Below, piece by piece: positions 45,429 through 50,284 of a stretch of 64,000 nucleotides of DNA. Origin of the DNA: Chloroflexota bacterium (GTDB lineage: Bacteria > Chloroflexota > UBA11872 > VXNJ01); contig OZ253449.1 of the NCBI GenBank assembly GCA_965261345.1, positions 768,001-832,000 on the forward strand, read 5' to 3'. Under the pieces are notes generated by a model. It was not told the origin of the DNA. It saw nothing but the letters and a program-made list of their open reading frames with translations, and ran no database searches. How positions within the stretch are numbered: position 1 is the first letter of the stretch; each line of letters opens with the position of its first letter. The translations under genes were made by a program, and so were the position numbers.

Positions 45429-45524
45429 GATCACCTGCGAAATGCCCGCATCCCCACCAAAGTGAGCTTTAGGCCCGCTGTAGGGCGGCGGCGGTTGCCC
45501 CTGTACCTTGTATGTTCCAAATGG

Positions 45525-45685
45525 GAAGTCCCGGGTGCGGTAGGGCGCCTGTACCTTGGTCCATTGAGACCGTTTTAAAGCACGCTCGCCGCACCCGGAT
45601 CTCCCGGCGCATAGACCCCGAACAATTGCTCGGTGGGCTCTAGACCCCGTATTCGCAAGGAAGGGCGTAGCGTCGGGAGTAACTA
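45525..45685 (+). ncRNA. Bridge RNA of IS110-A (ends approximate)
   Basis: Stem CCGGGTGCGG/CCGCACCCGG encloses CCTGTACCT (45548-56) and TTTAAAG (45574-80); stem CTCCCGGCGC/GCGTCGGGAG encloses ACAATTGCT (45622-30) and GCAAG (45655-59). Confidence 0.88.
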
Positions 45686-45700
45686 TAGGGAGTTTTACAT

Positions 45701-46648
45701 ATGTGCGAGGACGTATATGTAGGCGTCGACGTTGCCAAAAACACCGTCGATATCGCCCTCGGGCCCCAGGGCGAGGTCTTTACCCTGCCCAACTCTGCGG
45801 CCGGGTTCGGGGCGTTGATCAAGCGCCTCGAGAACTATCTGGTGGCGCTGGTGGTCGCAGAGGCCACTGGCGGCTACGAGGAGCAGCTGGCCGACGCTCT
45901 CCGGGACGCCGGCTATAAGGTGGCGGTGGTAAATCCGCGCCAGATGCGCGACTTTGCCCGGGCGCTTGGGATCCTGGCCAAAACCGACCGGATCGATGCC
46001 CGGGTGATCGCCCGCTACGCCGAGGCGGTAAGGCCCCCGGCAAGGGAGCGCAAGTCGCCCGCCGAGCGCGAACTGGCGGGACTGGTTGCCCGCCGCGGCC
46101 AGCTCATGGACCATCTCACCGCCGAGAAAAACCGGCTGGGGAGGCGGGTAGTTCCGCGTGTACGTGCAGACATCAGGCGCGCCATTGCCGGACTGGGGCG
46201 CCGCATCGCCACCCTTGACCGCGATATCGGCAAGCTGATTAAGGCCGACTCCGATCTTGCCACCCGCAGCGCGCTGCTGACCTCGGTGCCCGGCGCCGGC
46301 CCGCAGCTGGCGGCAACCGCGATCGCCTACCTGCCCGAGCTTGGAACGGTGGACGAGAAGCAGATCGCAGCCCTGGTAGGGGTTGCGCCCCTGAACCGCG
46401 ACAGCGGCGCGTATAGTGGCAGGCGAACGACCTGGGGCGGACGCTCAAGGGTCAGGTCGGCGCTTTACATGTCGGCCCTGTCAGCCTCGCGCCACAACCC
46501 GGTGATCAAGGCTTTTTACGACCGGTTGGTGGAGAGCGGGAAACCCAAAAAAGTGGCGCTGACGGCCTGCATGAGAAAGCTGCTGGTGATCCTGAACGCG
46601 ATGCTGAGGAACGGCGAGTATTGGCGCGAGGAGTCCGCCTCGGGCTGA
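45701..46648 (+). CDS. IS110 family DEDD recombinase, intact, 315 aa
   Basis: GVDVAK, EATG, KTDRIDA (DEDD); SVPGAG; NRDSG catalytic Ser. Confidence 0.96.
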
Positions 46649-46860
46649 ACGCCGGGCAGGTCCGATCGCTCTTGCGGGCAAGGTCCCTGGCGAAGCCATG
46701 CCCGGGATCGGGCTATTGCGGCGATTACGCATCCGGTTATCGCCTGTCGATCGGGCTGCGGTCACTATGAACCGCGGTCGGGGCGCTGGATCTATCCTCC
46801 CCTTTCTCCTGGACCCCTCTGACCCCACCTCTGCCGGAATTGACAATCAAGACAATTGCT

Positions 46861-47125
46861 TTAGGTAGCTTCATCTGACTAAGCAATTGGGCATGCGCGA
46901 TGCTCTGCTCAGCCTGGATGAAGTCAAGGTCAGCGGCCGGGAGTAACCAATCGCCCCTTGTGTCTTTTGAGCACCGTGGGGGGGACCCGTGCCCCGGTGC
47001 AGCTGGCCGCGGCAGATGCCCCGTGGAGAGTTTGCGTCTTAGAACGCCGGTACAGGGATTGGCAGGTGTCGTGGCGGACCTTCAATGCGATCAATACCAT
47101 CGCGCACCACACATGGGGAAGGACC
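46861..47125 (+). ncRNA. Non-coding left end / bridge RNA of IS110-B (ends approximate)
   Basis: AATCGCCCC (46949-57) and G7 (46978-84) match target GGTTGCC-CC-CCCCC; GGAGAGTTT (47025-33) and GTACAGG (47050-56) match donor AGAGAGT-CC-TGTAC. Confidence 0.8.
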
Positions 47126-48367
47126 GTGAAAGAACACACTTCCTGGTACGCCGGTATCGACTGGGCCATCGCCGAGCACCAGGTCTGCATCATCGACGCT
47201 GACGGCAACGAACATGGTCAGCGTAATTTCCCGCATCGTGGATCCGGATTGGCGGCCATGGCCGCCTGGATCCTGTCCCGCACCGGAACCGACCCCGAAG
47301 ATATCGCCATCGCCATTGAGGTGCCGCATGGACCGGTGGTCGAGAGCCTGCTCGATCGCGGGTTTAAAGTGCATGCCATCAACCCCAAGCAACTCGATCG
47401 CTTCCGTGATCGCTTCTTCCCAGCCGGCGCCAAGGACGACCGCCGCGATGCCAGGGTCCTGGCCGATGCCCTGCGCACCGATCCGCAGGTGCTGCGGCAG
47501 CTGGCATCGCCAGATCCCTTGACCGTGGAGCTAAGAGAGTTCTCACGTTTGGCTGAGGAGCTCACCAAGGAGCGCACCCGCCTTAGCAACCGGGTGCGAC
47601 AACAACTCTGGCGCTACTATCCGCAGGTCCTGGAGATCAGCAACAACGTCACCGAGCCATGGATCCTGGATCTGTGGCAGATGGCTCCCACACCGGAGAG
47701 GGGGCGGCGATTGAGTCGAGGCCGGGTAACCCGGTTGCTAAAACGCCATCGCATCCGTCGCATTGATGCGACAGGCGTGCTCTCGATGCTGCGCCAGGAA
47801 GCGATAAAGGTGTCTCCGGGCACAACCGAGGCTGCCGTCGCGACGATCACCCTGGTCGCCGAACGTCTAAAGCTCATCCAGCGTCAACTGCTCGAGGTCA
47901 ACACCCAGATCGACCGCTTAACCGATGCCATCGCCAACGATGCACTGGGTGAGAGCGGGCAGCGCGACGTGGCCATCCTCTCATCTCTTCCCGGAGTCGG
48001 AAGGACGGTCCTCGCCACACTGCTCACCGAGGCGCATGATCCTCTTATGCGGAGAGACTATCGCGCCCTGCGCTCATTATGCGGAGTTGCGCCGATAACC
48101 AAGCGATCGGGCAAGAGCATGATCGTTGTCCGACGCCATGCCGTCCATCGTCGACTCGCCAATGCCATGTACCACTGGGCCCGGGTGGCGGTTCAGCATG
48201 ATCCGGTCAGCCGACGCAAATACGACGCATTACGCCTTCGAGGCCATCGGCATGCAAGGGCGTTGCGATCGGTAGCTGACCGTTTGTTGGCGGTGGTCTG
48301 CGCTATGCTGCGTAACCAGACCCTTTATCAGCCAGAACTGCTCCGGAGTGATGCCGCAGCGGCTTGA
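47126..48367 (+). CDS. IS110 family DEDD recombinase, long type (~413 aa)
   Basis: GIDWA, IEVP, KDDRRDA, SLPGVG, KRSG; the stop codon lies inside the terminal TTGACA. Confidence 0.95.
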   Translation: MKEHTSWYAGIDWAIAEHQVCIIDADGNEHGQRNFPHRGSGLAAMAAWILSRTGTDPEDIAIAIEVPHGPVVESLLDRGFKVHAINPKQLDRFRDRFFPAGAKDDRRDARVLADALRTDPQVLRQLASPDPLTVELREFSRLAEELTKERTRLSNRVRQQLWRYYPQVLEISNNVTEPWILDLWQMAPTPERGRRLSRGRVTRLLKRHRIRRIDATGVLSMLRQEAIKVSPGTTEAAVATITLVAERLKLIQRQLLEVNTQIDRLTDAIANDALGESGQRDVAILSSLPGVGRTVLATLLTEAHDPLMRRDYRALRSLCGVAPITKRSGKSMIVVRRHAVHRRLANAMYHWARVAVQHDPVSRRKYDALRLRGHRHARALRSVADRLLAVVCAMLRNQTLYQPELLRSDAAAA

Positions 48368-50284
48368 CAAATGGTAGAGAGTCCCCCCCGGGGGGAACTG
48401 GAATTGGAATTCCACAACGGCCTCGGTGGATTCGCGGCCAACGGGAGCGAGTACGTTACCGTGCTCGGCCAAGGGCAGTGGACCCCGGCACCCTGGGTAA
48501 ACGTGGTTGCCAATCCGGAGTTTGGATTCCTGGCGCCCGAATCCGGATCGGGCTATACTTGGTCGGCAAACAGCCGTGAAAACAAGCTAACGCCCTGGAA
48601 CAACGACCCGGTTTCCGATACGCCGGGCGAGTCGTTTTACGTAAGAGACGAGGACGCCGGGACGGTCTGGGGACCGACCACCCTACCGATTCGCCAGGAA
48701 CGCTGGCCCGATGTCATTCGGCACGGTCAGGGGGTATAGCCGGTTCGAGCACACGTCCCACGGTATCGCCCTGGATCTGACCCAGTTCGTGCCGCTTAGG
48801 GATTCGGTAAAAATACCATGCCTCATTCTTTCCAATGAATCGAGCCGCACCCGGCGCCTTACCGTTACCGCCTACGCGGAGTGGGTGCTCGGAGTTACCC
48901 GGAACCGTTCCGCGCCTTTCGTGGTTACCGAAATTGACGCCACCACCGGGGCCATGTTTGCTCGCAATGCGTGGAACGGCGAATTTTCGGGCGGGTTGCT
49001 TTCGCCGCTATGGCCGGGAGTCAAACCTCCTGGACCGGTGACCGGCTTGAGTTCCTCGGCCGCAACGCGAGCCTCGATCACCCCGGGGCGTTAGCGCGCG
49101 GGGAGGCGCTGTCCGGCAGGACCGGAGCCGGCCTTGATCCATGCGCAGCGATTCAGACGAAGCTGGAACTCGAGCCTGGGCAGCGCGTCGAAGTGGTGTT
49201 CCTGCTCGGCGAGGATGCCAATTCCGAGGAGGCTCGCTCGCTGGTCGAACGCTACCGCGTCCTAGATTGCGAGTTGGCGCTCGGCGAGGTAGGCGCGCAC
49301 TGGGACCAGATCCTGGAAACAATTCAGGTAAAAACCCCGATCCGGCGATGAAGCTGCTGTTCAATCGCTGGCTCCTTTACCAAGTCCTTGCATGTCGAAT
49401 CTGGGCCCGTTCGGCGTTTTACTAGGCCGGTGGCGCCTACGGATTCCGCGATCAACTCCAAGGCTCCCTGGCGTTGGCGGTGTCCAATCCGCAGATCTTG
49501 CGCGAGCACGTATTGCGCGCCGCATCGCGCCAATTTAAAGGGGGACATCCAGCATTGGTGGCATCCTCCGACCGGCCGAGGGGTTCGGGCCCAGTTATCC
49601 GACGACCGCCTCTGGCTTCCGTATGCCGTAACCCACTATCTGCACGCCACTGCGGATCATCCCGTTCTAGACGAGGAGGTGGGGTGGATTGAGGGACTGG
49701 CGCTGACGCCTGAACAACAGGAACCCTACTTTGAACCAACTAGCTCAACGGAAGCGGCGAGTCTTTACGAACACTGCGCGCGGGCCTTGGACCGCAGCTT
49801 TGCGGTTGGCAGTCATGGGCTCCCGCTAATCGGCGCTGGCGACTGGAACGACGGGATGAACCGGATTGGCCACCATGGACGCAGGGAAAGCGTATGGCTG
49901 GGCTGGTTTCTTGAAACGAACCTGCGGAATTTTGCCCGGATCGCCGAATCCCGCGGCGAGAGCCGGTGCTCCGCCAGCTGGCGGAGCACGGCCGATTCGC
50001 TCGTAAATTCGCTGGAAGCGGAGGGGTGGGACGGCAAGTGGTATCGTCGCGCGTTTTTCGACGATGGGTCCCTGCTCGGCTCTGACGAAAACGAGGAGTG
50101 CCGGATCGACGCGATCGCCCAGTCTGGGGCGGTCATATCCGGTGCGGGCGACCCTGGGTGGGCGCGCCTGGCAATGCGATCTGTGGAGGAGCGGCTCATC
50201 CGGCGCGGCGACGGCCTGATGCTGCTCTTTGATCCGCCATTTGACAAGACGTCACCAGACCCCGGCTTGTATCTTGACTTCGGA

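Follow-up and report, generated by a model that had tools for sequence, protein, structure and literature searches.

Elements of the IS110 family that target the ends of other mobile elements are already known. For example, IS1383 is reported to have the inverted repeats of IS1384 as its specific integration site (Muller et al. 2001), and IS4321/IS5075 target the ends of Tn21. The IS1383 work predates bridge RNAs, and guide-target pairing was therefore not described. For IS621 and the IS110 group (Durrant et al. 2024, PMC11208160), the bridge RNA is reported to be able to act in trans. No published example of one IS110 targeting another through readable guides was found, though IS110s that target other insertion sequences could be listed in the supplementary target tables of PMC11208160 and PMC11187229. 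A word search of a preprint on expanded IS110 loci (bioRxiv 10.64898/2026.08.14.744561) for nested cases, "another IS110," "other IS110," and "multiple IS110" found none.

The locus considered here lies in a window of 64,000 nucleotides, the whole stretch of DNA that was analysed, from a Chloroflexota bacterium (contig OZ253449.1, positions 768,001 to 832,000). An intact IS110-family element, A, sits inside the left end of a second IS110, B, which is unrelated to A. The features of the two elements and their surroundings, in window positions, are as follows.

45100-45190 and 45237-45320 (+): two tRNA genes upstream of the insertion locus (Rfam tRNA matches)
45500-48384: element B, with A nested inside it (left end from 45500, right end to 48384)
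45500-45508 (+): B core CC (45500-45501) and B nucleotides 1-7, TGTACCT, equal to the left half of the A target
45509-46860 (+): element A, 1352 bases, sequence re-read and located by script
45509-45700 (+): A left end, the bridge-RNA gene (consensus fold, guide-flank covariation)
45548-45556: A LTG, CCTGTACCT, located by script
45574-45580: A RTG, TTTAAAG, located by script
45620-45630: A LDG, in the A bridge-RNA gene
45652-45660: A RDG region, in the A bridge-RNA gene
45701-46648 (+): A recombinase gene, 315 aa (DEDD_Tnp_IS110, E = 8.7e-25; Transposase_20, E = 7.4e-20)
46649-46860 (+): A right end, containing a -35 TTGACA (46840-46845) and ending in the right copy of the core, CT (46859-46860)
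46861-47125 (+): rest of the B left end, its bridge-RNA gene displaced by A (B-family alignment)
46949-46957: B LTG, AATCGCCCC (B-family alignment)
46978-46984: B RTG, GGGGGGG (B-family alignment)
47025-47031: B LDG, GGAGAGT, equal to the last bases of the B right end
47049-47057: B RDG (donor guide), GGTACAGGG, matching the B left end
47126-48367 (+): B recombinase gene, 413 aa, GTG start (DEDD_Tnp_IS110 and Transposase_20 domains; tblastn)
48364-48384 (+): B right end, with -35 TTGACA at 48364-48369, GAGAGT ending at 48382, and core CC at 48383-48384
48385-50267 (+): remnant of a GH94 glycoside phosphorylase in several frames, host DNA of the B insertion (GH94_b-supersand and Glyco_hydro_94 on separate open reading frames)
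50268-53569 (+): A2, related to A at about 70% identity but with other guides (LTG AACCCCGCT at 50307-50315, RTG GCCGTAG at 50334-50340)
about 51310-53236 (-): group II intron interrupting A2 (domain V match at 51309-51383, minus strand; RVT_1 and GIIM domains)

A, B, and A2 all match PF01548 and PF02371, the IS110-family domains, above the curated cut-offs. A has a long non-coding left end (192 nt), no terminal inverted repeats, and the same core dinucleotide at both junctions with no other duplication, CT standing at both junctions in all full A copies. The left junction reads CCTGTACCT/TGTATG (45500-45508, then 45509), with the left core copy CT at 45507-45508, and the right junction reads CAATTG-CT/TTAGGTAGC (46853-46860, then 46861); in empty B copies the segment at 45500-45508 is contiguous with TTAGGTAGC. 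The site occupied by A, CCTGTAC-CT-TTAGG, is the core CC plus nucleotides 1-12 of the B left end. Its left flank matches the A LTG at 9/9 positions, and CTTTAGG matches the A RTG at 5/7 positions plus two rU:dG wobbles. The LDG of A, ACAATTGCT, is identical to the tip of its right end. A circle of A would carry TTGACA-17-TATGTT across its junction (hexamers checked by script), and the promoter scan of the linear locus returned 0 sites, as is expected if a promoter exists only in the circle. Folded as a single sequence, the A bridge RNA has z = -2.77. An Rfam search at permissive thresholds returned no curated bridge-RNA family, only sX15 (RF02234) on the opposite strand, whose scores of 32.5 and 39.5 bits are below the gathering score of 55.

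The left end of B is 272 nt long, CC stands at both B junctions, and the C-runs that flank every B copy fit the B guides. The B RDG GTACAGG pairs with CCTGTAC, while in the lineage at 41 kb of the genome GTATAGG pairs with CCTATAC, which independently confirms the B left end; the right end of that lineage, sought for a further covariation test, was not recognisable. A circle of B would give TTGACA-17-TACCTT, which is the same with or without A inside. An earlier note on this DNA, made from the letters alone, had placed A in CCTGTAC-CT-TTAGG with a matching target loop, and re-reading of the coordinates together with the script bears this out. Its assignments of the B donor guide and of the predicted B junction promoter also stand, the latter with hexamers and spacing as described, as does its statement that the B donor bases and TACCTT box are kept while the B bridge RNA is displaced, the distance being 1352 bases. 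The same note had held that removal of the insertion restores GH94 in frame, which is not supported: a TAG lies in the GH94 frame at 45470-45472 and there is no start codon between it and B. Given this TAG, the missing start codon, and the end of the tRNA genes at 45320, B adjoins a frameshifted GH94 remnant at its 5' edge and splits no open frame. The existence of an allele that lacks both A and B is shown by a contig of public run X4, in which 45501 and 48394 are joined through CCC.

Seven copies of A with the same guide are present in this genome, and five are inside B-family left ends: the copy described above, at 813.5 kb of the genome, and those at 20.7, 41.5, 159, and 268 kb. At these five loci the left side is CCTGTACCT (in one case CCTATACCT, with a G:T wobble) and the right side is the left end of B or of a B-like element. 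Every B-family left end in this genome (5/5) carries A, with position and orientation identical throughout, and these ends represent at least four B lineages; the family here is made up of B itself, in two copies, together with three diverged lineages and a 5'-truncated copy that lacks a left end. The A copies differ at 4-13 of 1352 positions, with the exception of one decayed copy and the 268-kb copy, which is a mosaic between positions 232 and 564. Since the A copies are near-identical but the B lineages have only 60-64% protein identity to B (tblastn), at least four recent independent insertions are indicated. The two B::A copies may be one event, a single composite move, or may be two separate hits. 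The A RTG matches the 20.7-kb lineage (CT-TTAAA) at 7/7 positions, against 5/7 plus wobbles for B; the guide fits the conserved start of the whole B family, and the perfect match is to another B-like copy, not to B. Across the genome, 26 occurrences of the LTG 9-mer were counted where 18 are expected: seven in the guides of A itself, four at left junctions of A, and 15 at background sites. In its uninterrupted form the full site, CCTGTACCTTT[AT], has 0 occurrences in this genome. The two exceptions among the same-guide copies, at 14 kb and 875 kb, lie inside the left end of an IS3-family element, where the site GCAGTCCC-CT-TTCGT agrees with the A guide at only about 4/12 non-core positions and fits the guide of a sibling element instead.

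Sister genomes show the site without A. Uninterrupted B-family left ends number five in G002, two in G003 (one with a mismatch), and three in G006, which is 10/10 in these three genomes, and the A guide was found in 0/5 sister genomes at up to two mismatches. The five G002 copies of B have different flanks and all read CC-TGTACCTTTAGG. In contigs of public runs X10 and X14, B is preceded by CCCCTGTAC or CCCTGTAC, that is, B without A, and a variant of A in run X14 carries another guide; in the run-contig comparison, small joints whose sides measured 21-27 letters were disregarded because they are unreliable. The A guide pattern had 0 matches among species-representative genomes, a collection from which this genome and its near relatives may be missing. 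The sole match to that pattern among metagenome contigs was rejected as a chance match in unrelated sequence that holds no insertion sequence. As the earlier note had predicted, empty B copies begin CC-TGTACCTTTAGG, the 14-mer is the B left end and not host DNA, and most same-guide copies of A lie at the B-family position and not in a non-IS110 target. Its proposal that A is dedicated to B is upheld in part: the guide is programmed for a B-end site, but four diverged B-family lineages are hit, the RTG is perfect for the 20.7-kb lineage, and two copies lie in an IS3 end.

The guides of A relatives change with their flanks. Own guide-flank pairs agree at a mean of 9.4/12 non-core positions (n = 14, minimum 7), compared with 3.0/12 for cross pairs (n = 112, maximum 7), a count that excludes the two same-guide IS3-end copies at 14 kb and 875 kb; the RTG fits the right flank at 7/7 positions in five relatives. 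In the RNAalifold consensus of nine family members, a stem (columns 23-38/77-91) and a cap hairpin (50-53/61-64) are formed, with compensatory changes on both sides at pairs 37/78, 52/62, and 53/61. The target guides fall in unpaired columns 40-48 and 66-72, an internal loop of the conserved stem-loop, and the donor loop is only partly resolved. On the donor side, the LDG covaries with the right end (ACGATTG in A2, ACGGTTG in a G003 relative), and the RDG holds GCAAG where the left end starts with T and GCGAG where it starts with C. Siblings of A at 70-90% identity are aimed at different sites. Their targets are other insertion sequences: the B-family left end on either strand, two IS3-family left-end sites, and the PRYGYKRI-coding stretch of IS3 transposase genes.

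Very probably, A is an autonomous bridge-RNA-guided IS110 whose target loop is programmed for the conserved start of the B-family left end, and we infer that its own RNA and recombinase made the insertion. The loop would read the core CC, TGTAC, the A core CT, and TT(A/T)A, and an excised A circle would recombine at bases 6-7 of the B left end, which are CT, and always in the orientation of B. This segment is conserved among B lineages, is paired by the B donor guide, and would carry the -10 box of the B circle-junction promoter, and so would be a stable multi-copy landing site outside host genes. The insertion keeps the B donor bases and TACCTT box and shifts the B bridge-RNA and recombinase genes 1352 bases away from them. 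The most likely effect on B would be loss of its expression, and co-mobilisation as a B::A composite is possible.

An alternative reading, evenly balanced, is that the B-family left end is purely a safe haven, a harmless, repeated, and conserved landing pad, and that B is inactivated because its promoter is severed from its bridge RNA and recombinase, so that hit copies decay. Of the five B-family copies that are hit, three are degenerate. One is a left-end fragment only, another combines an interrupted recombinase gene with a 55-nt leader that lacks a bridge RNA, and in the third the right end is not recognisable. G002, which lacks the guide, has five near-identical empty B copies, compared with two B copies here, both hit, and the siblings of A are likewise aimed at other insertion sequences. 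However, the B copy in the window retains an open 413-aa gene and an intact bridge-RNA region, and the decay of the old lineages may predate A.

That A is a parasite exploiting B, riding in excised B as a B::A composite and transcribed from the B circle-junction promoter, is unlikely. The hitch-hiking and promoter capture suggested in the earlier note are compatible with the sequence. The donor bases CC-TGTACC, paired by the B RDG, survive along with the unchanged TTGACA-17-TACCTT; no terminator-like site was found on the plus strand inside A; both B copies here carry A although they are at different sites; and a preprint (bioRxiv 10.64898/2026.08.14.744561) reports IS110 loci that remain mobile while growing by insertion into loci already occupied. 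Against this, no circle junction, whether of A or of a B::A composite or any other, was listed in the contigs of four runs, which cannot exclude rare forms, and A has a predicted junction promoter of its own. The two B::A copies are no closer to each other in shared differences than to other A copies, and A is as fresh in three old B lineages as in B, which indicates that the spread of A does not need B.

Choice of the site by protein or local DNA structure, with a coincidental guide match, is very improbable, for while a structural layer of target recognition is reported for another IS110 in one preprint, nothing specific favours it at this site, guides and flanks change together across nine guide types with the rest of the RNA conserved, and the 15 background copies of the 9-mer have no insertions. 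A single evolved two-recombinase module or tandem duplication product without nesting is hardly credible, since although tandem IS110 modules are reported (bioRxiv 10.64898/2026.08.14.744561), three sister genomes hold B without A, at ten places in all, as do two runs, A without B also exists, removal of A restores the B left end base for base, and the recombinases of A and B are only about 33% identical over 123 residues.

Programming of A for the B-family left end remains the preferred reading. A wider and more doubtful extension is that the A lineage may live mainly on other insertion sequences and retarget fast by rewriting about 14 guide bases, that A may be a hyperparasite between the B junction promoter and bridge RNA, silencing or riding B in a guide-versus-target arms race, and that sibling guide RNAs may be cross-used in trans, which would explain the two misplaced copies in the IS3-family end.

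The locus is a natural, sequence-readable case of bridge-RNA programming against another RNA-guided element, and of one mobile element homing on another with all target copies in the genome filled. It bears on the question of whether the spread of an insertion sequence in a genome is limited by other insertion sequences, and it identifies the start of an IS110 left end as an exposed, conserved site with which the element's own donor guide pairs and in which its -10 box would lie. Built-in controls are present in sister genomes with the target but without the guide, and in near-identical elements that differ almost only in their guides; with these, plasmid assays can test guide evolution, natural mismatch and wobble tolerance (9/9 and 5-7/7), and the use of sibling RNAs in trans.

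Compared with known systems, A most closely resembles IS621 and the IS110 group as reported in PMC11208160: both have a recombinase with DEDD and Tnp domains, a long non-coding left end encoding an RNA with LTG and RTG in a target loop and LDG and RDG in a donor loop, a CT core, no inverted repeats, and a promoter rebuilt across the circle junction, which for A is a prediction from the hexamers. The natural targets reported for IS621 are repetitive host REP sequences, whereas the target of A is the donor end of another IS110; in addition, the A RTG is predicted to pair over seven bases including the core. Like IS1383, A has the end of another insertion sequence as its specific target. IS4321/IS5075 are likewise insertion sequences with a DEDD recombinase that home on the conserved end of another mobile element; unlike A, they are reported to belong to the IS1111 group, with a guide RNA downstream of the gene, and the site they target is the inverted repeat of a Tn3-family element and no IS110 donor site. 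Expanded IS110 loci (bioRxiv 10.64898/2026.08.14.744561) and half-match recombination (bioRxiv 10.64898/2026.08.31.748434) share with this locus repeat insertion into occupied loci, a lack of target immunity, and tolerance of partial guide matches. The expanded loci are described as growing through the resident element's own system or by cargo capture, whereas A is a second, unrelated IS110 with a guide written for the end of the first.

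The genome that holds the window is a single contig of 2.39 Mb. Downstream of two tRNA genes the sequence reads ...GGTTGCC-CC-TGTAC-CT and continues with TGTATGTTCC..., the start of an IS110-family element (A) nested in the left end of a second one (B).

Features of the locus (window positions unless stated)
End at 45320: two tRNA genes, upstream of the insertion locus
45509-46860: element A
45701-46648: A recombinase ORF, 315 aa, with DEDD_Tnp_IS110 and Transposase_20 domains
47126-48367: B recombinase gene, 413 aa, GTG start
50268-53569: A2, a third IS110, about 70% identical to A, inside a GH94 remnant
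51310-53236, minus strand (also genome 269286-271215, locus L053): group II intron with RT and maturase domains and a domain V match

The left end of A is 192 nt long and non-coding, and its right end terminates in ...TTGACAATCAAGACAATTG-CT. The sequence adjoining A on its 3' side, TTAGGTAGCTTCATC..., is the remaining part of the B left end; the right end of B is ...TTGACAAATGGTAGAGAGT, followed by the core CC at 48383-48384. The two recombinases share about 33% identity across just 123 residues. A remnant of a GH94 gene, spread over several frames, lies 3' of B. B does not split an open GH94 frame, since a TAG stands in that frame at 45470-45472 and no start codon lies between it and B; the in-frame restoration of GH94 on removal, which had been claimed in the earlier note, is therefore rejected. 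Within window 48371-48390, an ATG at 48371 contributed by the B right end is in frame with the remnant. The group II intron that interrupts A2 in turn is also present in the 268-kb A copy; both recombinase genes hold it at the identical point and in antisense orientation, and other copies of the intron end lie elsewhere in the genome. An intron inside an IS110, which itself sits in a further IS110 or in host sequence, makes a nesting of three levels.

A and B both show the features of the IS110 bridge-RNA group that are readable from sequence. In the bridge-RNA model as outlined by Durrant et al. (PMC11208160), the left target guide (LTG) is identical in sequence to the left target and core, whereas the right target guide (RTG) complements the core plus right target. 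The A left end contains CCTGTACCT at 45548-45556 (LTG) and TTTAAAG at 45574-45580 (RTG). The LTG matches the left flank at 9/9 positions and the RTG pairs with CTTTAGG at 5/7 plus two U:G wobbles, so the A guide is, as proposed, written for its insertion site. The alignment covered nine left ends of the family, drawn from this genome and from five sister genomes. In their consensus fold, which has both-side changes at three pairs, both guide segments fall inside the internal loop of one conserved stem-loop; the guide loop columns are the most variable part and the remaining RNA is well conserved. Guides vary in step with flanks across the family: non-core positions matching an element's own flank averaged 9.4 of 12 (minimum 7; 14 element-flank pairs), compared with 3.0 (maximum 7) for cross pairings (n=112), and in five relatives the RTG is perfect (7/7) to the right flank. 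This count omits a duplicate B copy, a duplicate guide (L032), the self-nested A4, the split 138-142 kb element, and two exceptional B-type-guide copies (14 kb and 875 kb). The donor guide ACAATTG, ACGATTG or ACGGTTG matches the respective right-end tip, and GCAAG or GCGAG in the RNA tracks the first left-end base, T or C respectively. Sub-threshold matches to Rfam sX15, a Xanthomonas small RNA, overlie the A and A2 bridge-RNA regions on the opposite (minus) strand (window 45522-45684 and 50285-50451; 32.5 and 39.5 bits, where the gathering score is 55); the sX15 family may have been built on an IS110 left end.

The 14-mer that A targets (core CC plus 12 nt) is the end of B on three independent grounds, which upholds the earlier identification. 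First, five B copies of about 100% identity occur in sister genome G002; none carries A, and all five begin CC-TGTACCT-TTAGGTAGC directly after unrelated flanks, the start that was sought in empty copies. B-like elements of G006 (three copies, 84% identity) and of G003 are uninterrupted at the same place; uninterrupted B-family left ends number five in G002, two in G003 (one site with one mismatch) and three in G006. Second, the B donor guide GGTACAGGG (47049-47057) complements CC(C)TGTACC, and a diverged lineage at 41 kb has a compensating change, with guide GTATAGG and a left end beginning CCTATAC. Third, in public sequencing runs, represented by contigs from other studies, CCCCTGTAC (X10) or CCCTGTAC (X14) precedes B, and an X4 contig runs from 45501 straight to 48394 with CCC at the joint, which is an allele lacking both elements. 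The C/G run of that allele is shorter than the sum of both flanks here (C7G2 vs C9G6). X14 also has an A variant with another guide, CATTCCCCT/AATGAAG. Every B copy is flanked by ..GCC-CC-CCCCC runs, which the B guides (LTG AATCGCCCC, RTG GGGGGGG) fit; judged by these guides, B is a guided element in its own right.

BLAST places A at eight loci in this genome, seven of them with the A guide. Five of these seven lie in B-family (IS110) left ends, with CCTGTACCT on the left (in one case CCTATACCT, a G:T wobble) and the B-family end on the right. The hosts are two B copies and three lineages that are 60-64% identical to B at the protein level, one represented only by a left-end fragment. All five existing B-family left ends are occupied, in the same orientation throughout; a sixth B-family gene has no left end and was not counted as informative. 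A pattern search found no uninterrupted target site in this genome, none of its 15 bare 9-mer background copies has an insertion, and a search that allowed up to two mismatches found the A guide in none of five sister genomes. A copies differ at 4-13 of 1352 positions, so they must have spread long after the B lineages had diverged; at least four separate insertions are implied. The perfect guide match is not B but the 20.7-kb lineage (CT-TTAAA), so A is aimed at a conserved family start. The description of A as a dedicated parasite of B consequently stands as to guide-directed entry into the B end, but not as to exclusiveness, as three other lineages are also hosts. At genome 22058-22112 (L050), the perfectly matching B-like copy has only a 55-nt leader, without a bridge-RNA region, and its gene is broken by about 1.8 kb.

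Sibling guides lead elsewhere. The A-like element at 138-142 kb, split by an insertion and carrying CATTCCCCT/AATGAAG, has a guide-matching location within an inverted repeat that belongs to an IS3-family element (HTH_Tnp_1; HTH_21, rve, rve_3), and a 90% identical G002 element has the same placement. The left end of that IS3 element also hosts, at GCAGTCCC-CT-TTCGT, the two exceptional copies that carry the B-type guide. This site agrees with the A guide at about 4/12 non-core positions, and with that of A4, a decayed sibling (CAATCCCCT/ACGAAAG), at 8/9 and 7/7. Their placement could possibly reflect a sibling RNA acting in trans, by analogy with IS621 RNA, for which such action is described (PMC11208160); later conversion of the guide segment and recombination between copies are also possible. 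The 14-kb copy (genome 14041-15392, L054) lies between two inverted IS3-family copies and has hybrid flanks (IS3 site 2 left, site 1 right), a pattern suggestive of an inversion in which two A copies recombined.

At genome 148475-148523 (L055, minus strand), the start of the A4 left end is tandemly repeated, with a repeat length of 48 nt. The second left end directly follows the CT within the LTG of the first, as if an element had inserted into the half-target contained in any bridge-RNA gene. The A2 guide, AACCCCGCT/GCCGTAG, fits an IS3-family transposase stretch coding PRYGYKRI (CCCCG-CT-ATGGCTAC), of which eight sites are unoccupied in this genome. The corresponding genome loci are 1301446-1302795 (L049) and 146114-147490 (L055); the copy in the latter, at 147 kb, has hybrid flanks, left in the A4 recombinase gene and right in an IS3 gene, and the window copy in GH94 has a poorer guide-site match. 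An A relative in G003 (L003, G003:C1:14707-19024; 78% identical, guide TTTTGACCT/AAGTCAG) occupies, on the opposite strand, a B-family left end (..GGTTGAC-CT-GACTTTGTCC), a second, different site within this target family. At L041 (G005:C18:219100-222300), an A-family right end adjoins TGATTACGGGAAG..., which is a further A-family left end read from base eight onwards; A-family elements thus seem to nest in one another in a similar way.

As the earlier note held, the insertion keeps the donor bases CC-TGTACC and the hexamer TACCTT. TTGACA-17-TACCTT is identical with or without A, and the B bridge-RNA and recombinase genes are shifted 1352 bases downstream. The predicted circle-junction promoter of A is TTGACA-17-TATGTT, its -35 and TAT.TT parts being conserved in the A family. 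No terminator-like site was found on the plus strand inside A. The retained box and this lack would allow both capture of the B junction promoter by A and co-mobilisation of the two. No circle junction or transcript was observed in the public-run contigs. By shared differences, the two B copies with A are compatible with one or two events. Three of the five A-occupied B-family copies are degenerate, which would fit silencing by A but may predate it. Guide-directed insertion of A into the end of another IS110 is, as far as sequence can tell, the correct core of the interpretation; hitch-hiking of A within B is a possibility.

Full-text literature searches, and a word search of a 2026 preprint (bioRxiv 10.64898/2026.08.14.744561) with supplementary tables outside their scope, returned no IS110 guide written for the donor end of another IS110. 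That preprint describes occupied IS110 loci that receive repeated insertions and lack target immunity, and a second one describes half-match recombination (bioRxiv 10.64898/2026.08.31.748434). The A/B pair is a useful natural system for the study of guide evolution. Like A, IS1383, reported to insert in the inverted repeats of IS1384, and IS4321 and IS5075, reported in the ends of the Tn21 family, are IS110-family elements homing on the ends of other mobile elements.
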